Sequence record: PZ445456.1
Strand: one strand, 5' to 3'
Origin: a phage
Length of the DNA: 39,315 bases
Positions 3,347-39,315 of this stretch are shown piece after piece. Position numbers and translations under genes: made by a program. Below the pieces are notes generated by a model that did no database searches, was not told the DNA's origin, and saw nothing but the letters and a program-made list of their open reading frames with translations. The stretch's first letter is position 1, and every line of letters starts with the position of its first letter.

Positions 3347-3452
3347 AGCAACCGTTGAGAGACACAACGCTACCAACTACCAGACAAGACCTAGAGTTAT
3401 CTGGTAAGGCTGAAGGGTCTCAAGTAGTCATCAACCAGACATACGAAAGTGG

Positions 3453-3762: not shown

Positions 3763-4218
3763 ATGATTCACACTAAAGAGCAAGCTAACGTTTTCTATGT
3801 ACTGGTAAGCGCATTCCGTTCTAACCTGCACCACTTGGATAACCTTAGCCGTCATCGTCGCTTAGTTAACAGCTTACGCAATGCACCTCTGGAATACGGT
3901 AGCGTTGAGTCCACAGACTTAACTGGCTGTTACCATGAGGCTGGCATGGAGTCACCTGCTGAAGAGCAAACCATCCGAGTACGCTGCACGACCAAGGCGC
4001 AAGCTATAAGTGTCGCACGGTTGGCCTGTAACGACTATGAGCAAGACTGTGTACTGGTCTATAAGTCACAGACTCACAGCGCTGCACTAATCTTTGCTGG
4101 TGGCTTAGATGGCTGGAAGACTGAGCGCATTGGGACGTTCCAGATGGTCGCACCCGAAGTTGAACTGATTGGCAACTACACGGTCGATGAGTTCGGACGT
4201 GGCTGGAAGGTAATCTAA
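3763..4218 (+). CDS. 0.3: S-adenosylmethionine hydrolase/lyase (T3-type gene 0.3 anti-restriction), 151 aa
   Basis: MIHTKEQANVFYVLVSAFRSN...YGSVESTDLTGCY...KAQAISVARLACN..EQDCVLVYKSQTH...IDEFGR matches T3 SAMase as recalled; not Ocr-like (not acidic, no DNA mimic character). Confidence 0.88.
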   Translation: MIHTKEQANVFYVLVSAFRSNLHHLDNLSRHRRLVNSLRNAPLEYGSVESTDLTGCYHEAGMESPAEEQTIRVRCTTKAQAISVARLACNDYEQDCVLVYKSQTHSAALIFAGGLDGWKTERIGTFQMVAPEVELIGNYTVDEFGRGWKVI

Positions 4219-4415
4219 TGGTCGCACTCTTCGTAATCACGATGTACGCTCTGATTGGGGCGTACTTCCTTCGAGACTTCCGCAAGGGTCTGAAGGTACA
4301 CAAGGCTAACTTCTCGCACCTGAAGTATGGCTTTCTACCACGATTCACAGTCCGTGAACGCAACGGGCGCTTTAAGGCTAACAAGGTTGGTATCTTCTAT
4401 GTTGCAACACACTGA
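4218..4415 (+). CDS. Small early membrane protein, 65 aa (gene 0.4-0.6 region)
   Basis: TAATG overlap with the 0.3 stop; N-terminal hydrophobic helix VALFVITMYALIGAYFL; no homology recognised. Confidence 0.4.
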   Translation: MVALFVITMYALIGAYFLRDFRKGLKVHKANFSHLKYGFLPRFTVRERNGRFKANKVGIFYVATH

Positions 4416-4563
4416 TAGTTTAACTAAGAAAGTTCTGTACGCACTGGCATATGGTGCTACCAACAAGACTCTAATGCGGGCATTGCACCTGAAGCGGCTG
4501 CCAGCCAGAAAGGTAGCAAAGGCACGTAAAGAAGCACGTTTAATCATCAATTCTCTTTCTTAA
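4399..4563 (+). CDS. Small basic early protein, about 54 aa
   Basis: In-frame ATG at 4399 inside ORF 4327..4563; overlaps the preceding ORF in another frame; basic C-terminus LKRLPARKVAKARKEARLI. Start uncertain. Confidence 0.3.
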   Translation: MLQHTDSLTKKVLYALAYGATNKTLMRALHLKRLPARKVAKARKEARLIINSLS

Positions 4564-4584: not shown

Positions 4585-5508
4585 ATGAACTACACCGACA
4601 TTCAGGCACGTCTGGCAATCATCAAGTCACTCCCGATTAGCGAACTGGACAAGCGCCAGCCTCTTCTGGTTGCACTGGCTGCTGACATCGTGAACGGTGA
4701 GACAAGCGATGGCAACGATACAGATGGGTCGCAGGGTCTTGAGTATCAGGACTATTGGCACACATTGGGTGCACTGATGCGTGATGCTGGATTCAAGATG
4801 TTAGGCAATGGTCACTTCAGTGCGGCCTACTCGCACGAAATGTTACCGGGTCGAGTCATCAAGGTTGGCTTTAAGAAAGAGGATTCAGGCGCTGCGTACA
4901 CTGCGTTCTGTAGGATGCACCAAGGCCGAGCGGGTATCCCTAACGTCTATCACGTAGCACGACATGCAGGTTGCTATACGGTCGTACTGGACCGCTTAAA
5001 AAGCTGTGACCGCTACGCTAACGATGTGCACGCAAAGTATGCAAGTGCTGCGCAGGAGTTCATTGAGTGCACTGGAGGTGATGCTGATTGGTACGCACAA
5101 TATGTTAGCAAGGAGTTCATTGAGACGTGCAAGATGATTCGTGAGTTCTTCCACGGTATTGCATCTTTCGACATGCACAGCGGGAACATTATGTTCGATG
5201 ACAACGATGTCCCGTACATCACTGACCCGGTTAGCTTCTCACATGACCGTGAACGTGAGGACGGTTTCCCTCTGGACCCTGAAGCACTGCTGGCTGAGGT
5301 CGAGGCTGTAGCGAAAGAGCGCATGATTGAACGTTGCCGCAACCGCAAGGCCAAGTGTGACCCTAACGGAACCTTTCAGGTTAACCGCAAGGCCGCAATG
5401 AAACGCCGTAAGCGCAACCGCAAGTTACGCGCCAAACGTGATGCTGAGGCTGCAAAGCACTTTGTACAGCATAGACATGGACAAAGCAGGAACTACGGGA
5501 CGCTATGA
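4585..5508 (+). CDS. 0.7: Gene 0.7 protein kinase (N-terminal kinase portion), 307 aa
   Basis: [15 protein letters not shown]...[22 protein letters not shown]...GIPNVY...[10 protein letters not shown]...[13 protein letters not shown]...[11 protein letters not shown] matches T7 gp0.7 as recalled. Confidence 0.9.
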
Positions 5509-5690
5509 GGGCGCAAGATTGGATGGGTGCGCACAACTGGCACAACATGTGGTTGCACAACAACATTGCAGACGTAATCAAGATTGACCAAGTGAACGGC
5601 CTTAAGTGGCAACTAGGGGACCGCCTCGCAATACAAGCGGGTCTCCCTTTGAACATCGACAAGGCACTTGACGCTCAACTGATGGGCTGA
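5505..5690 (+). CDS. Gene 0.7 C-terminal (host shut-off) domain as a separate ORF, 61 aa
   Basis: Different frame, ATGA overlap with the kinase ORF stop; C-terminus [21 protein letters not shown] matches the T7 gp0.7 C-terminus (..LTLNIDKQLDAMLMG). Confidence 0.6.
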
Positions 5691-5763: not shown

Positions 5764-8415
5764 ATGACTAACGTAATCAACGCACCAAAGAACGACTTCT
5801 CTGACATCGCTAACGCAATCCAGCCGTACAACATTCTGGCTGACCACTACGGTGCACAGCTTGCAGCTACACAGCTTGAGTTAGAACACGAAGCGCACAC
5901 CGAAGGCGAGAAGCGTTTCCTTAAGGCAATGGAACGTCAAATCAAAGCGGGTGAGTTCGGCGATAACGCAGTAGCTAAACCTCTCCTGTCATCCCTCGCA
6001 CCGAAGTTTATCGAGGCGTGGAACACTTGGTTCGCTGAAGTGGAAGCGAAGCGTGGCAAGCGTCCAGTGGCCTACAATCTGGTACAGAAGGTTACACCTG
6101 AAGCTGCTGCATTCATCACACTGAAGGTCACGCTGGCTTGCTTGACCAAAGAGGAATACACGAACCTTCAATCGGTCGCCACTAAGATTGGTCGCAGTAT
6201 TGAAGACGAGCTACGTTTTGGTCGCATCCGTGACGAAGAAGCGAAGCACTTTAAGAACCATGTACAAGAAGCACTCAACAAGCGCGTTGGTATCGTCTAC
6301 AAGAAAGCATTCATGCAAGCGGTTGAAGGCAAGATGTTAGACGCTGGTCAACTACAGACCAAGTGGACCACATGGACACCTGAAGAAGCAATTCACGTTG
6401 GTGTACGCATGTTGGAACTACTCATTGGTTCTACTGGTCTCGTTGAGTTACACCGCCCGTTCGCTGGGAACATCGAGAAGGATGGCGAGTACATCCAGTT
6501 AACAGAACAGTATGTAGACCTGTTATCCAAACGTGCTGGCGCACTGGCTGCAATCGCTCCGATGTATCAGCCTTGCGTGGTCCCGCCTAAGCCTTGGACT
6601 TCTCCGGTCGGCGGTGGCTATTGGGCTGCTGGTCGCAAGCCTCTCTCTCTGGTTCGCACTGGTAGCAAGAAGGGACTGGAACGTTACAACGACGTGTACA
6701 TGCCTGAAGTTTACAAGGCGGTGAACATCGCACAGAATACTCCTTGGAAGATTAACAAGAAGGTTCTGGCAGTGGTCAACGAGATTGTGAACTGGAAGCA
6801 TTGCCCGGTTGAAGATGTACCCGCTCTGGAACGTGGAGAACTTCCGGTCAAACCTGATGACATCGACACCAACGAGGCATCACTCAAAGCATGGAAGAAA
6901 GCGGCCTCCGCAATCTACCGTAAAGAGAAGGCTCGCGTGTCTCGTCGCATGAGCATGGAGTTCATGTTGGGTCAAGCCAATAAGTTCGCACAGTTTAAAG
7001 CTATCTGGTTCCCGATGAATATGGACTGGCGCGGTCGTGTGTACGCGGTCCCGATGTTCAACCCGCAAGGCAACGACATGACCAAAGGCTTGCTGACGCT
7101 CGCTAAAGGTAAACCAATCGGTGTAGATGGGTACTACTGGCTGAAGATTCACGGTGCTAACACTGCTGGCGTGGACAAGGTGGACTTTGCAGAACGCATC
7201 AAGTTCATTGATGACAACCATGAGAACATCCTGAGCGTAGCGGCTGACCCAATTGCTAACACTTGGTGGGCCGAGCAAGACTCTCCGTTCTGCTTCCTCG
7301 CGTTCTGCTTCGAGTATGCAGGTGTGCAACACCACGGGATGAACTACAACTGCTCTCTTCCGCTGGCGTTCGATGGTAGCTGCTCCGGTATTCAGCACTT
7401 CTCCGCGATGCTCCGTGATGAGGTTGGCGGTCGTGCGGTTAACCTGCTGCCGAGCAAGGAAGTACAGGACATCTACCGCATCGTTGCGGAACGTGTGAAC
7501 GAAATCCTGAACCAAGATGTTATCAACGGGACCGACAACGAAGTAGAGACCGTGACCAACAAGGACACAGGGGAAATCACTGAGAAGCTCAAGCTGGGTA
7601 CTAAAGAACTAGCTGGTCAGTGGCTGGCCTATGGTGTGACTCGCAAGGTCACTAAGCGTTCAGTCATGACATTGGCTTACGGTTCCAAAGAGTACGGCTT
7701 CCGTGACCAAGTTCTTGAGGACACCATTCAGCCAGCTATCGACGATGGCAAGGGCTTGATGTTCACTCAACCGAACCAAGCGGCTGGCTATATGGCTAAA
7801 CTGATTTGGAACGCCGTAACGGTGACTGTGGTCGCTGCGGTTGAGGCAATGAACTGGCTGAAGTCTGCTGCTAAACTGCTGGCTGCTGAGGTCAAGGACA
7901 AGAAGACCAAAGAGGTTCTGCGCAAACGCTGTGCGGTACATTGGGTAACTCCTGATGGCTTCCCTGTGTGGCAGGAATACCGTAAGGCAGTACAGACCCG
8001 CTTGAACCTGATGTTCTTAGGTCAGATTCGTTTGCAGCCTACCGTGAACACCAACAAGGATAGCGGCATTGATGCACGTAAGCAGGAGTCAGGTATCGCA
8101 CCTAACTTTGTTCACTCAATGGATGGTAGCCACCTGCGCATGACTGTGGTCCGCTCCAATGAGGTCTACGGTGTGGAATCGTTCGCACTGATTCACGACT
8201 CCTTTGGCACTATCCCTGCTGATGCTGGCAACCTGTTTAAAGCAGTGCGTGAAACTATGGTCAACACTTACGAAGAGAACGATGTACTTGCAGACTTCTA
8301 TGAGCAATTTGCTGACCAGTTGCACGAATCACAGCTTGACAAGATGCCTGAGATGCCAGCTAAAGGTTCTCTGGACCTGCAAGAAATCCTTAAGTCAGAC
8401 TTTGCGTTTGCCTAA
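5764..8415 (+). CDS. 1: Single-subunit DNA-dependent RNA polymerase, 883 aa
   Basis: Collinear match to T7 RNAP over the full length; motif C IHDSFGT and specificity-loop residues R746/N748/R756/Q758 present (QTRLNLMFLGQIRLQPT). Confidence 0.98.
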   Translation: MTNVINAPKNDFSDIANAIQPYNILADHYGAQLAATQLELEHEAHTEGEKRFLKAMERQIKAGEFGDNAVAKPLLSSLAPKFIEAWNTWFAEVEAKRGKRPVAYNLVQKVTPEAAAFITLKVTLACLTKEEYTNLQSVATKIGRSIEDELRFGRIRDEEAKHFKNHVQEALNKRVGIVYKKAFMQAVEGKMLDAGQLQTKWTTWTPEEAIHVGVRMLELLIGSTGLVELHRPFAGNIEKDGEYIQLTEQYVDLLSKRAGALAAIAPMYQPCVVPPKPWTSPVGGGYWAAGRKPLSLVRTGSKKGLERYNDVYMPEVYKAVNIAQNTPWKINKKVLAVVNEIVNWKHCPVEDVPALERGELPVKPDDIDTNEASLKAWKKAASAIYRKEKARVSRRMSMEFMLGQANKFAQFKAIWFPMNMDWRGRVYAVPMFNPQGNDMTKGLLTLAKGKPIGVDGYYWLKIHGANTAGVDKVDFAERIKFIDDNHENILSVAADPIANTWWAEQDSPFCFLAFCFEYAGVQHHGMNYNCSLPLAFDGSCSGIQHFSAMLRDEVGGRAVNLLPSKEVQDIYRIVAERVNEILNQDVINGTDNEVETVTNKDTGEITEKLKLGTKELAGQWLAYGVTRKVTKRSVMTLAYGSKEYGFRDQVLEDTIQPAIDDGKGLMFTQPNQAAGYMAKLIWNAVTVTVVAAVEAMNWLKSAAKLLAAEVKDKKTKEVLRKRCAVHWVTPDGFPVWQEYRKAVQTRLNLMFLGQIRLQPTVNTNKDSGIDARKQESGIAPNFVHSMDGSHLRMTVVRSNEVYGVESFALIHDSFGTIPADAGNLFKAVRETMVNTYEENDVLADFYEQFADQLHESQLDKMPEMPAKGSLDLQEILKSDFAFA

Positions 8416-36383: not shown

Positions 36384-38258
36384 ATGGCTCTCAAGATTCG
36401 TACCGTAATGACTTATCCGCTAACAGGTGCTGTGGACTTTGCAATCACCTTTGAATACTTAGCGCGTAAGTTCGTGACGGTAACTCTAATTGGTAAAGAC
36501 CGTAAGGAACTGGTTCTCAATCAGGACTATCGGTTCACCACTAAGACACAAATCACTACAACACGCACGTGGACGGCGGCTGACGGATATGACTCTATTG
36601 AGATTCGTCGATACACCTCCGCGACTGACCGTCTGGTTGACTTTGCTGATGGCTCAATCCTTCGTGCATATGACCTAAACATCGCACAGATTCAAACGCT
36701 TCACGTTGCTGAAGAAGCACGAGACCTCACTGCGGATACCATTGGTGTCAACAACGAGGGTCACTTGGATGCGCGTGGTCGACGCATCGTCAATGTAGCT
36801 AACCCTATAGATGATGGCGATGCAGTCAACCTGCGCTCTATCAAGCAGTGGAACGACTCCGCTCTTAACTCTGCAAACAGGGCAAAGGCTTCCGAGGAAG
36901 AAGCAAAGCGACAGACTGATTGGGCCGGACGTATGCGCAATGAGTCAGAACAGTTCCGTAACGAGGCCAATCAACACCGAGCGGTGGCTGAGTCTGCCAA
37001 GGACCAAGCAATTACCGCTAAGAATCAAGCTGAATCGGCAAGAGACCTCGCTTCAGGTTCTCGGAGTGAAGCATCAAGGTTCGCTGAAGAGTCCAACCAG
37101 TATATGTCACGGTCTAAGCAATGGGCTGTCAACCCGGTAGATGTTGTAGTCACAGATGGTGAATACTCCGCGAAGCACTGGCAGCATCATTCTAAGGTTG
37201 AGGCCGACCGCTCGAAGAGAGAGGCTGACCGAGCAACCACTGAGGCTGACAAGCTGGGAAACATGAACGCACTTGCAGGTGCCATTGAGGAAGTAAGTCC
37301 AGACCACGTTGTTTCATGGTCGGCTACAGCTAAGTTTAAAGGTGAACTCATTGCCAACCGCTCAATGACTCTTCGTGCAGCGGATGAACAGGGTGCTATG
37401 GGACAGATGGTTCACGAATATGACGACACAGTCGGACGTCATGTCTCGAATACCTATTGGGCCATCAAGCACCCACATAGAGGAGAATGGCATGTTCCCT
37501 ATAAGATTCTAAACCTACCTAACGATTCTGCGGCGTGGGAGATGCACTTCGGGGACTTAATGCGTTGTTATAATGGATTGAAGGTCGAAGGGTTTAATAA
37601 ATCACTAGATGTAACCAATCAGGCGAATACTGCCGTTCGAACGGTGGCATATGGTCCGGGCGATTTGACCCAAGGGGCGTGGGTGTGTAACACTCGTTGG
37701 AACTTCTACGATTCAGGGTTAGAAATTGGATGGGTTCGAGGTGGTTCTACGAACGGCAACGGCCTAATCCGGTGGAAGCCGGAAGGAACTCAAGCGACAT
37801 ATCATGATATTTGGCTAAACCCGGGCGGTGTGGTGCAGTTCCCCGAGAAGATTCTCGTAGGGGCGGGTGGTGCCTCCGTTGGTGTTGATGGTAATATTGA
37901 TGGCTCACTTTGGGGTGGTAATCTATACGGCTGGCTGAACAACCGCTTAGGTGATCGACCAACGTTTGCTCAAGGAGACGGGCGCTATGTTCGAAAGAGT
38001 GCTGGTTGGGCTGAAGTATGGAGTGGTTCCGCTGGTGGTGGGGTATCCGTAGGTCTCAATCAGGATGTCCGCTGGAGAACTATCTGGATTCAAACTCAAG
38101 GCAGATGGAACCCTGTTCAGATTGGGGACGATGGGGCTTACTATATCTCGTCTATGGGTGGGTGGCTACAGTTCACAATCTCAGACAACGGGAGAACTTT
38201 CCGTAACGATGCAGACAGAAGCTCTGTTCCTACGAGAATCTTGGTTCAAACCCAATAA
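36384..38258 (+). CDS. 17: Tail fiber protein, 624 aa
   Basis: N-terminus (TV.TY.L.G...F.I.FEYLARKFV.VTLIG.DRK.L..N.DYRF...T...T..W..ADGY..IE.RR.TS.TDRLVDF.DGSILRAYDLN.AQIQT.HVAEEARDLT.DTIGVNN.GHLDARGRRIVN) and C-terminal tip (W..VWSGSAGGGVSV) match T7 gp17; central region divergent; internal ATG 36384 with RBS AAGGAGG. Confidence 0.93.
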   Translation: MALKIRTVMTYPLTGAVDFAITFEYLARKFVTVTLIGKDRKELVLNQDYRFTTKTQITTTRTWTAADGYDSIEIRRYTSATDRLVDFADGSILRAYDLNIAQIQTLHVAEEARDLTADTIGVNNEGHLDARGRRIVNVANPIDDGDAVNLRSIKQWNDSALNSANRAKASEEEAKRQTDWAGRMRNESEQFRNEANQHRAVAESAKDQAITAKNQAESARDLASGSRSEASRFAEESNQYMSRSKQWAVNPVDVVVTDGEYSAKHWQHHSKVEADRSKREADRATTEADKLGNMNALAGAIEEVSPDHVVSWSATAKFKGELIANRSMTLRAADEQGAMGQMVHEYDDTVGRHVSNTYWAIKHPHRGEWHVPYKILNLPNDSAAWEMHFGDLMRCYNGLKVEGFNKSLDVTNQANTAVRTVAYGPGDLTQGAWVCNTRWNFYDSGLEIGWVRGGSTNGNGLIRWKPEGTQATYHDIWLNPGGVVQFPEKILVGAGGASVGVDGNIDGSLWGGNLYGWLNNRLGDRPTFAQGDGRYVRKSAGWAEVWSGSAGGGVSVGLNQDVRWRTIWIQTQGRWNPVQIGDDGAYYISSMGGWLQFTISDNGRTFRNDADRSSVPTRILVQTQ

Positions 38259-38302: not shown

Positions 38303-38509
38303 ATGCTGTCATTAGATTTTAATAACGAGGTAGTGAAGGCTGCACCGATTGTAGGGACAGGGGTAGCCGATGGCGCTGCCCGTCTGTTCTTCGGGCTGTC
38401 ACTTAACGAGTGGTTCTATGTAGCCGCAATTGCCTACACAGTGGCTCAAATTGGTGCCAAGGTAGTCGATGTGATTATCAAATGGAAGAAGGAGGGCAAA
38501 GATGTCTAA
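38303..38509 (+). CDS. 17.5: Holin (class II), 68 aa
   Basis: MLSLDFNNE..KAAPIVGTGVAD..ARLFFGLSLNEWFYVAAIAYTV.QIGAKVVD matches T7 gp17.5. Confidence 0.88.
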   Translation: MLSLDFNNEVVKAAPIVGTGVADGAARLFFGLSLNEWFYVAAIAYTVAQIGAKVVDVIIKWKKEGKDV

Positions 38510-38771
38510 CGATAAATCATTAATCCAATTCCTTGAGATGCTGGATACTGAGATGGCTCAACGTATGCTGAAAGACCTTCAGGATGACGATAAACGCACA
38601 CCTCAACTGTACAACGCAATCGGGAAACTGTTAGAGCGTCACAAGTTCCAAGTATCCAAGCTACAACCAGACCGTAACATCCTTGGTGGACTTGCTGATG
38701 GCCTTCAGGAGTATCAGAACCTAGTAGGTGACGATGGTCTCACTGAAGATGAGAAGTACACGCTGAACTGA
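38502..38771 (+). CDS. 18: Terminase small subunit (DNA maturase A), 89 aa
   Basis: DKSLI.FLEMLDT.MAQRML.DL.D...R.PQLYNAI.KLL.RHKFQ..KLQPD..ILGGLA..L.EY...VGD.GLT.D..YTL matches T7 gp18. Confidence 0.92.
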   Translation: MSNDKSLIQFLEMLDTEMAQRMLKDLQDDDKRTPQLYNAIGKLLERHKFQVSKLQPDRNILGGLADGLQEYQNLVGDDGLTEDEKYTLN

Positions 38772-38775
38772 TGGA

Positions 38776-38820
38776 ATAACTCAAGGCCACTACATCTAGT
38801 GGTCTTTATGATATTTCAAC
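38776..38820 (+). promoter_or_regulatory. RNase III-type hairpin upstream of gene 18.5 (R18.5-like)
   Basis: ATAACTCAAGGCCACTACATCTAGTGGTCTTTATGAT; stem AAGGCCACTA/TAGTGGTCTT with one G-U; same AACTCAAGG..CCTT architecture as the R1.1-type copies. Confidence 0.45.
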
Positions 38821-38869
38821 ACAACTCACGGTAACGCTACGTGAAATCTGAAAATACGGGAGGGTAGTT

Positions 38870-39315
38870 ATGCTCAAGAATTTAAAGAGCTACGCCATCG
38901 CTGTGGCCTTTGTCTTGGGGATGACCCTTGCGTACAACCACGGATATGACAAAGCTAACACTAAATGGGAACAGGAGGTGCACAATGAGTACGTTAAGAA
39001 AGTTAAGGCGACTGAGGATAAACAGGCTGCTATTAACGAAGTCTCACGACAATACCAAGAAGACCTTGCGGCGCTGGAAGGCAGCACTGATAGGGTCATT
39101 AATGATTTGCGTAACGATGGTAAGCGGCTGCGTGTCAAGCTGTCAAACACCTCACGAGAGCTCCAAGCTAACGGTGGATGCCTCGCTGATGGTCGAGCCG
39201 AACTTGACGAAGAGTTTAGTAAGCGTCTTATCGGAGTAACTCAAAGAGGGGATGCGTGGATTCGTGCGCTCCAAGATACAATAACTGAAATGCAAACTAA
39301 GAAGGAGGCTAAGTA
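38870..39315 (+). CDS. 18.5: Spanin inner-membrane subunit (Rz-like), 3' end at the window edge; stop completes across the circular junction
   Basis: RBS GGGAGGG; N-terminal TM anchor KSYAIAVAFVLGMTLAY then coiled coil; 148 codons open to the window end; final ta plus the first a of the window form TAA. Confidence 0.85.
   Translation, partial: MLKNLKSYAIAVAFVLGMTLAYNHGYDKANTKWEQEVHNEYVKKVKATEDKQAAINEVSRQYQEDLAALEGSTDRVINDLRNDGKRLRVKLSNTSRELQANGGCLADGRAELDEEFSKRLIGVTQRGDAWIRALQDTITEMQTKKEAK
38985..39239 (+). CDS. 18.7: Spanin outer-membrane lipoprotein subunit (Rz1-like), embedded in 18.5 in the +1 frame, 84 aa
   Basis: RBS CAGGAGGTG; MSTLRKLRRL...ALIGSLMICVTMVSGC (lipobox-like ..SGC); C-terminus LMVEPNLT matches T7 gp18.7 (..ISGCAS...LMVEPNLT). 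Confidence 0.8.
   Translation: MSTLRKLRRLRINRLLLTKSHDNTKKTLRRWKAALIGSLMICVTMVSGCVSSCQTPHESSKLTVDASLMVEPNLTKSLVSVLSE

Follow-up and report, generated by a model that had tools for sequence, protein, structure and literature searches.

Gene 0.7 of T7-like phages is expected to be a single ORF of ~360-370 aa, in which a promiscuous Ser/Thr/Tyr kinase is followed by a domain that shuts off host transcription and binds DNA. Why, then, does one such phage encode the protein in two pieces? In the window, by which we mean the whole stretch of 39,315 nucleotides that was analysed, the gene is split into an ORF of 307 aa (4585-5508, plus strand) and an ORF of 61 aa (5505-5690, plus strand), the latter starting MRAQDWMG. 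The stop codon of the first overlaps the start codon of the second in an ATGA at 5505-5508 on the same strand. Such a layout might result from an error in the sequence, from a mutation that breaks the gene, from a pair of genes that evolved to be expressed apart, or from recoding that joins the two frames into one product.

The window can be assigned to a known phage. Its 307-aa protein is an exact match to QXV78404.1, 'protein kinase [Escherichia phage ErnstBeyeler]', and the window is the genome of this T7-like coliphage (MZ501064), which is Bas67 of the BASEL collection. The table of the collection gives ErnstBeyeler/Bas67 as a Berlinvirus of 39,315 bp from the inflow of a sewage plant in Basel, sequenced at 271x coverage; BASEL genomes were assembled in Geneious from Illumina NextSeq 550 reads. 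The window is circularly permuted: its first gene is that of the terminase large subunit, and the conventional left end of the relatives aligns near position 2862. From there the early region comprises a SAM hydrolase homologue (3763-4218), 0.6-like ORFs (4218-4563) and the two ORFs of gene 0.7 (4585-5690, plus strand), with the RNA polymerase gene (gene 1, 5764-8415) downstream. The two ORFs thus lie where gp0.7 is expected, after 0.3 and 0.6 and directly before gene 1, and the same early gene order is found in phages JSS1, Kvp1, D226, CarlSpitteler and BA14. The public record labels the 307-aa ORF 'protein kinase' and leaves the truncation unmarked. The exact sequence of the 61-aa ORF had no match in a collection of 15 billion proteins, so the record apparently annotates only the 307-aa ORF.

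Both ORFs match the same protein family. Against the PHROG 2828 profile (serine-threonine kinase, 366 positions), the first ORF covers positions 1-295 (E=2.4e-162) and the second positions 307-366 (E=2.4e-13). Since they tile one profile, they are consecutive pieces of one gene and no chance pair, and the identification as gp0.7 made by an earlier sequence-only reading of the locus is borne out. A Pfam-A scan (with a model set lacking PF27024) and an NCBIfam scan gave no match for the gene 0.7 product, and a PDB sequence search gave no solved relative; the protein restored by repairing the frame, as described below, has 761 homologues, and those listed carry PF27024 (Phage_T7_kinase). The first ORF is made of native residues 1-300, which run from the kinase domain (~1-219) through a linker into the basic part of the shut-off domain (245-300); 7 out-of-frame residues and a TGA follow. 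This out-of-frame tail occupies 5485-5508 on the plus strand (AGC AGG AAC TAC GGG ACG CTA TGA, read as SRNYGTL and stop). Traced upstream, the frame of the second ORF is closed by a TAG at 5472-5474 and is open from 5475 on. The sequence-only reading had placed the end of the first ORF at 5508, the start of the second at 5505 and the limit of the open frame at 5475; all its coordinates and quoted peptides were correct.

Every close relative carries gene 0.7 in one ORF of 361-368 aa. In JSS1, Kvp1, CarlSpitteler, D226, BA14 and SEqdws-315 this ORF is of 366-368 aa (1101-1107 nt), and the nearest ~80 protein clusters range from 352 to 375 aa, mostly 361-368. In 639 of the 900 records matched by tblastn, a single piece spans at least 80% of the protein, and an intact gene 0.7 is the rule among deposited isolate genomes. 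Two phage records that tblastn first showed as truncated or split, those of Klebsiella phage IME304 and phi1_146018, proved to have intact genes.

The comparison with the relatives places the lesion at a single base. Where the relatives read ACAAAAGC, the window reads ACAAAGC (5482-5488), i.e. it has three A (5483-5485, plus strand) at a site where BA14, D226 and SEqdws-315 have four. In aligned context the three relatives have GAACAAAAGCAGG and the window has GGACAAAGCAGG. Accordingly, the first 234 bases of a 241-base query from the window align to 235 bases in each of the three, which amounts to a -1 deletion at codon 301 as numbered in the intact gene. The sequence-only reading had proposed that a single-base indel at 5470-5505 would restore a protein of roughly 368 aa, and it had asked for a comparison with the nearest relatives. 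The comparison upholds this proposal: the relatives have a single ORF, the window lacks one A, and putting the A back yields an ORF of 1107 nt and 368 aa, equal in length to those of D226 and SEqdws-315. The repaired protein keeps all 149 conserved residues of the family (93 invariant and 56 near-invariant). The sequence around the ATGA, GCTATGAGG, is common to the window, BA14, D226 and SEqdws-315, and in the intact relatives the ATG at 5505 is an ordinary internal methionine codon (Met308). The TGA within 5505-5508 is read in frame only because of the deletion of the A.

The allele that suffered the deletion is a mosaic. By whole-gene DNA the nearest relative is JSS1, with 96.7% identity over the aligned 87%. 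Codons ~286-330 (5437-5578, plus strand) form a recombinant patch of the BA14/D226 allele type (84-98% identity), flanked by sequence of the JSS1 type at mostly 91-100% identity, lower over codons 46-75. The frameshift lies within the patch. The downstream ORF shows too few differences from the nearest alleles for dN/dS, and the region is a recombination mosaic. We also scanned the collections viral_contigs, metagenome_contigs and genome_contigs for the exact DNA pattern, allowing either AAA or AAAA, and found no sequence with the window's allele. A look-up of the exact 307-aa protein in assemblies returned no gene, and a cluster look-up returned the NCBI record only. Because the allele is absent from all contig collections scanned, the mutation has no independent confirmation.

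Where the break falls in the protein matters for its effects. In T7 gp0.7 (T7K) the kinase domain PK spans residues 1-242 and the shut-off domain SO residues 243-359; the latter, which harbours an extended basic helix, is a toxic DNA-binding domain that kinase activity does not require (PMC13645617). In our alignment of T7 gp0.7 with the window, T7 Gln243 corresponds to residue 245, which puts the kinase/shut-off boundary at ~245. An AlphaFold2 model was built on the intact homologue of SEqdws-315, which has the same length (368 aa) and aligns free of gaps; the pLDDT averages 80 for the whole model and lies at 81-90 for residues 271-350. The model shows a kinase fold to residue ~219, a low-confidence stretch at 220-230 (pLDDT below 50) and helices at 232-257, 263-314, 316-325, 328-351 and 357-366. 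Codon 301, where the frame shifts, and Met308, where it could restart, both lie past ~245 and inside the predicted continuous 52-residue helix 263-314. Hence the cut is within the shut-off domain, after its basic stretch, and according to the model it falls neither at the PK/SO boundary nor in a linker. The suggestion of the sequence-only reading that the break might neatly separate kinase from shut-off activity, leaving two working products, is not supported by this comparison: the break at 301 is in the middle of a predicted helix and the boundary is at ~245.

The two sides of the cut differ in charge. The retained residues 245-300 include 20 Lys/Arg and have a net charge of +15; the 68 residues lost (301-368) have a net charge of -1. 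All kinase-core residues are kept, including G74, G76, H77, D196, H198, G200, N201, D214, P215 and V216, and the kinase motifs are present, i.e. the GNGHFS loop (T7 G76), the FDMHSGN segment and the DPV motif (T7 213-215), with roles assigned as in PMC13645617. Downstream of the shift, 7 conserved residues are kept, including W342, A349, L356, I358, D359 and G368. By prediction, the 61-aa ORF covers the final 7 residues of the long helix and three further helices. Judged from its sequence, it is the conserved C-terminal module of the shut-off domain, undecayed and of uncertain expression. No compensating feature has evolved. With the kinase intact and the orphaned 3' part free of decay, the event looks recent. 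Naturally, this must be read with care, since an undecayed downstream ORF is predicted equally by a very recent mutation, by an assembly error and by a functional two-gene arrangement.

Lesions of this gene are also found elsewhere. A word-indexed search with the 61-aa ORF gave one candidate. Lesions were also sought through short proteins carrying the C-terminus of the gp0.7 family, with an exhaustive HMMER search, and five further independent disruptions of gene 0.7 were found in public Berlinvirus-type sequences. In contig k141_699914 of ERZ27280467, a +1 insertion at codon ~308 (GAAC-GCC to GAACAGCC) splits the gene into ORFs of 310 and 56 aa, ~7 codons from the break in the window. NODE_10043 of ERZ13616942 has a nonsense change of TGG to TAG at codon 263 (W263amber). 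In ERR2184199_352 a -1 deletion in a C-run at codon ~230 leaves ORFs of 241 and 122 aa, and SRR17836596_441 has lost residues ~140-288 by an in-frame deletion. Pectobacterium phage PP74, an isolate, shows a near-complete deletion, which leaves a 71-aa ORF with the C-terminal module. Like the lesion of the window, these are independent inactivating or truncating events, and in every case the extreme C-terminal module can still be read as an ORF. They differ from it in their positions and mutation types; none shares its A-run deletion, and four are known from assemblies. They agree with the published view of gp0.7 as toxic, dispensable and often lost.

What is observed directly is therefore a single lesion at a defined position of the protein, unique in this genome and absent from the relatives. 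The account that we favour, with a probability of roughly 0.78, is that a spontaneous -1 deletion reducing four A to three at 5483-5485 truncated gene 0.7 and caused a partial loss of function, with the kinase probably kept and shut-off, toxicity and DNA targeting probably weakened. The deletion would probably have arisen by replication slippage. The main product would be the 307-aa protein of ~35 kDa (the full-length product would be of ~42 kDa), with the whole kinase domain and the strongly basic first helices of the shut-off domain and without the last 68 residues. By analogy with T7 and JSS1, this protein probably remains an active kinase, and the same analogy suggests that host shut-off, toxicity and DNA-directed targeting are weakened, which would make the phage a partial loss-of-function 0.7 mutant. 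Since this product still has the basic stretch, its phenotype may be milder than that of the engineered 1-242 constructs. As gp0.7 can be dispensed with and harms phage growth on rich medium, selection would tolerate or favour mutants of this kind. A defence-poor K-12 host in rich medium may have allowed the mutation or selected for it, or the mutation may have pre-existed in sewage. The 61-aa ORF would then be the orphaned 3' end of the gene, made at most in small amounts through termination-reinitiation at the ATGA.

Could the two ORFs instead be a functional pair? Under such an arrangement a 307-aa kinase and a 61-aa module, the latter translated by reinitiation at the ATGA, would act apart or re-associate, and selection would keep a detoxified, dose-reduced shut-off function. 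An ATGA overlap is a classic arrangement for coupled translation, and some termination-reinitiation there is possible. The 61-aa ORF is intact with all its conserved residues present, the unrelated metagenomic phage with a +1 frameshift ~7 codons away has a Met-initiated 56-aa ORF within a base, and PP74 keeps only its 71-aa ORF with the C-terminal module. Yet, the cut and the restart methionine lie in one predicted helix (263-314, pLDDT 81-90) and not at a domain boundary, and the ATG and its context are identical in the intact relatives, which indicates that nothing there evolved for restart. There is no well-placed Shine-Dalgarno sequence: an AGGA lies 13 nt upstream of the ATG and a weak GGGA 4 nt upstream. 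The arrangement is missing from every close relative and is unique to one record. Furthermore, the fragment of T7 SO that acts independently spans residues 243-359 and includes the basic helix that the 61-aa ORF lacks. Hence, among the marks of an evolved split or coupled pair, we found neither a break at a domain boundary, nor start signals of its own, nor conservation; the ATGA overlap alone fits. We consider a functional pair unlikely. One might speculate further that the split is a selectable detuning of a toxic effector, in which the kinase keeps the basic stretch, and the 61-aa module, of which reinitiation at the ATGA yields low amounts, re-associates with it or acts alone. If this were true, the metagenomic +1 frameshift ~7 codons away and the 71-aa ORF of PP74 would be convergent, and the small C-terminal module would have a function of its own. 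The break inside a helix and the missing start signals speak against this idea, which we regard as improbable.

An artefact of sequencing or assembly would be a more mundane explanation: the phage would truly have AAAA and encode the full gp0.7 of 368 aa, the consensus having lost one A. The lesion is indeed a single base within a homopolymer, the downstream ORF is perfectly conserved and the variant is known from one public record only. However, the genome was sequenced with Illumina at 271x, and telling a run of three bases from one of four is not error-prone with such data. The sister phage CarlSpitteler has 49 annotated CDS; when these were compared with the window by tblastn, 47 matched. 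The 46 matched CDS other than gp0.7 align as a single segment in one frame; gp0.7 alone needs frames 1 and 3. As gene 0.7 is the sole frame-broken gene among the 47 compared, the assembly has no general problem with indels. The independent frameshifts, nonsense changes and deletions of gene 0.7 in five other assemblies or isolates also show that such lesions are biologically common. On the side of a real mutation, too, the four A of the intact allele would be one of only three homopolymer runs of at least four bases in gene 0.7. The depth of the Illumina data and the restriction of frame breakage to gene 0.7 make a real mutation much likelier than an assembly error, and an artefact at this site is improbable. 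On this indirect evidence, the deletion is probably a genuine mutation in the sequenced stock. The sequence-only reading had left sequencing error, mutation and a two-gene arrangement side by side; a real truncating mutation is the best supported of the three, given the 271x Illumina data, the shortness of the run (only three A against four) and the absence of any other broken gene among the 47 compared.

The weakest alternative is that full-length gp0.7 is made by recoding, through programmed -1 frameshifting or transcriptional slippage in 5475-5505, as for 10A/10B and 0.6A/0.6B of T7. A -1 shift anywhere in this interval would join the frames, and programmed frameshifts do occur in T7-like phages; 0.6B, for one, is annotated as a frameshift product in the record of JSS1. 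Yet, no slippery X XXY YYZ site is present among the zero-frame heptamers between 5470 and the stop codon, a range that takes in the whole overlap of 5475-5508. The 115 nt of RNA downstream (5486-5600) show no stimulatory structure: their MFE is -20.4 kcal/mol, whereas shuffled controls average -26.1 (z=+2.0), and 198 of 200 shuffles fold at least as well. Three A in a row are far too few for the polymerase to slip, and the two-frame layout is not conserved, the relatives encoding the protein in one frame. All of this makes recoding very improbable. Without a slippery site, a stimulatory RNA structure or a good ribosome-binding site, there is no support for programmed frameshifting or for a two-gene design that evolved as such.

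The truncation that we favour resembles several systems in which gene 0.7 has been altered. The closest in form is the delta-SO version of T7 gp0.7 (residues 1-242; PMC13645617). Both proteins belong to the same family, with 54-59% identity of the window's protein to T7 gp0.7, and both are encoded at the same early position before gene 1; in both, C-terminal shut-off sequence is removed and a complete kinase domain is left. T7 delta-SO phage yields ~31% of the wild-type phosphopeptides (PMC13645617). Yet, the cut in the window is ~56 residues further downstream (300 against a boundary equivalent of 245): T7 delta-SO stops at 242, whereas the window retains the basic stretch (net +15), which putatively binds DNA, and is short of the last 68 residues only. 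The causes also differ, a natural -1 frameshift in the window and an amber codon (JS78) or an engineered deletion in the T7 mutants. The amber mutant JS78 is reportedly kinase-positive and shut-off-negative.

The nearest characterised homologue is JSS1_004 of Salmonella phage JSS1, whose DNA is 96.7% identical outside the recombinant patch and which has the same two-domain architecture. JSS1_004 is a broad anti-defence kinase; both its domains are needed to overcome DndBCDE-FGH, and a delta-SO mutant no longer antagonises DndFGH (PMC12345140). The gene is too toxic to clone, and copies gain frameshifts, premature stops and missense changes (PMC12345140). In contrast to the window, JSS1_004 is an intact ORF of 367 aa, and in the window codons ~286-330 come instead from a BA14/D226-type allele. 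The contexts differ too: the host and defence background of the window's phage, E. coli K-12 delta-RM, imposes no known selection for the SO domain.

A third parallel comes from laboratory evolution. Studies of serially passaged T7 cited in PMC2680503 describe substitutions and deletions in gene 0.7 (Studier 1979; Heineman 2005; Springman 2005), and a 0.3-0.7 deletion of T7 has been reported (PMC8923235). As in the window, small spontaneous lesions remove or attenuate an early gene which the phage can do without and which is deleterious in rich medium. The passaged T7 are documented laboratory lineages, whereas the window is a Berlinvirus in which the lesion would date from sewage or from isolation passages. 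The event in the window is thus one more spontaneous truncation of a gene long known as dispensable, toxic and often lost in T7-like phages. It is a new instance of a well-known type of event in a well-known gene, and the genome was already public.

The interest of this instance lies in the phage that carries it. Bas67 (stock DSM 112945) is a reference phage of the BASEL collection, with which many laboratories score bacterial defence systems, and nick-based editing reportedly works on it (bioRxiv 10.64898/2026.06.25.734514). Kinases of the gp0.7 type act broadly against defence systems and depend on their C-terminal domain (T7K, PMC13645617; JSS1_004, PMC12345140), and Bas67 may therefore act as a natural partial 0.7 mutant. 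A survey of BASEL kinases (Nature 2026) dropped Bas67 as its infection curves 'behaved significantly differently' from those of other BASEL Autographiviridae. The link between these odd curves and the 0.7 lesion is suggestive only. If Bas67 is a partial 0.7 mutant, comparisons with its sister phage Bas68 would be biased, and the lesion may underlie the curves that led to its exclusion. Finally, the truncation point, which lies between the basic stretch and the conserved terminal helices, provides a ready-made allele for dissecting the shut-off domain.

Gene 0.7 is disrupted independently in five further public Berlinvirus-type sequences, and the lesions are of several kinds. There is a +1 frameshift at 3420-3440 of the metagenomic contig L007 (ERZ27280467 k141_699914), an amber codon at 800-805 of L019 (ERZ13616942 NODE_10043), a -1 frameshift at 1950-1960 of L025 (ERR2184199_352), an in-frame deletion at 814-825 of L026 (SRR17836596_441), and a near-complete deletion in Pectobacterium phage PP74 (L024/L027 1769-1984). 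The extreme C-terminal module of gp0.7 still lies within an open reading frame in all five, and in PP74 it is annotated as a 71-aa hypothetical protein. In the precomputed tables every listed homologue carries PF27024 (Phage_T7_kinase), but a Pfam-A hmmscan of the same proteins returned no family; a "no Pfam hit" in that search therefore does not show that a recent family is absent.

The whole genome of ErnstBeyeler is given circularly permuted in the window (1-39,315), which opens with the gene of the large terminase subunit (1-1758) and has at its far end the genes of the holin, the small terminase subunit and the spanin (38303-39307); alignment of the conventional left end of the relatives JSS1, BA14 and vB_CECAV_058 starts at about 2862. 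Among the other early genes, the gene 0.3 homologue (3763-4218) is of the SAM-hydrolase type and shares only about 67% identity with its counterpart in the sister phage CarlSpitteler (Bas68), whereas in L007 and PP74 this position is taken by an Ocr-type 0.3 gene. Two ORFs overlapping in different frames, of 65 aa (4218-4415) and 78 aa (4327-4563), together occupy at 4218-4563 the place of 0.6A and 0.6B as annotated in relatives; according to the JSS1 record, 0.6B is a frameshift product.

The tail-fibre proteins of ErnstBeyeler (window 36384-38255) and CarlSpitteler are only about 47% identical, against 90-100% identity for most other genes. A swap of the receptor-binding module is probable here. 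CarlSpitteler also encodes, between its spanin and large-terminase genes, a 185-aa hypothetical protein (1010-1567 of its sequence, L020) with no counterpart in the window, where the corresponding junction is 39307/1. A small CarlSpitteler CDS (L020 12810-12914) likewise has no counterpart in the window. A figure legend in bioRxiv 10.64898/2026.06.25.734514 reads "Bas67 = CarlSpitteler, Bas68 = ErnstBeyeler". The naming is the reverse in the BASEL S5 table and in GenBank, where CarlSpitteler has bas68_ locus tags. Laboratories using Bas67 or Bas68 should verify which of the two phages they have in hand.

Gene 0.7 of ErnstBeyeler is a recombination mosaic. Codons ~286-330 (window 5437-5578) carry an allele of the type found in BA14, D226 and SEqdws-315, with 84-98% identity to this type against 31-52% to JSS1, and the flanks on both sides are of the JSS1 type. 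Evidently, several exchangeable alleles exist for the C-terminal third of this gene.
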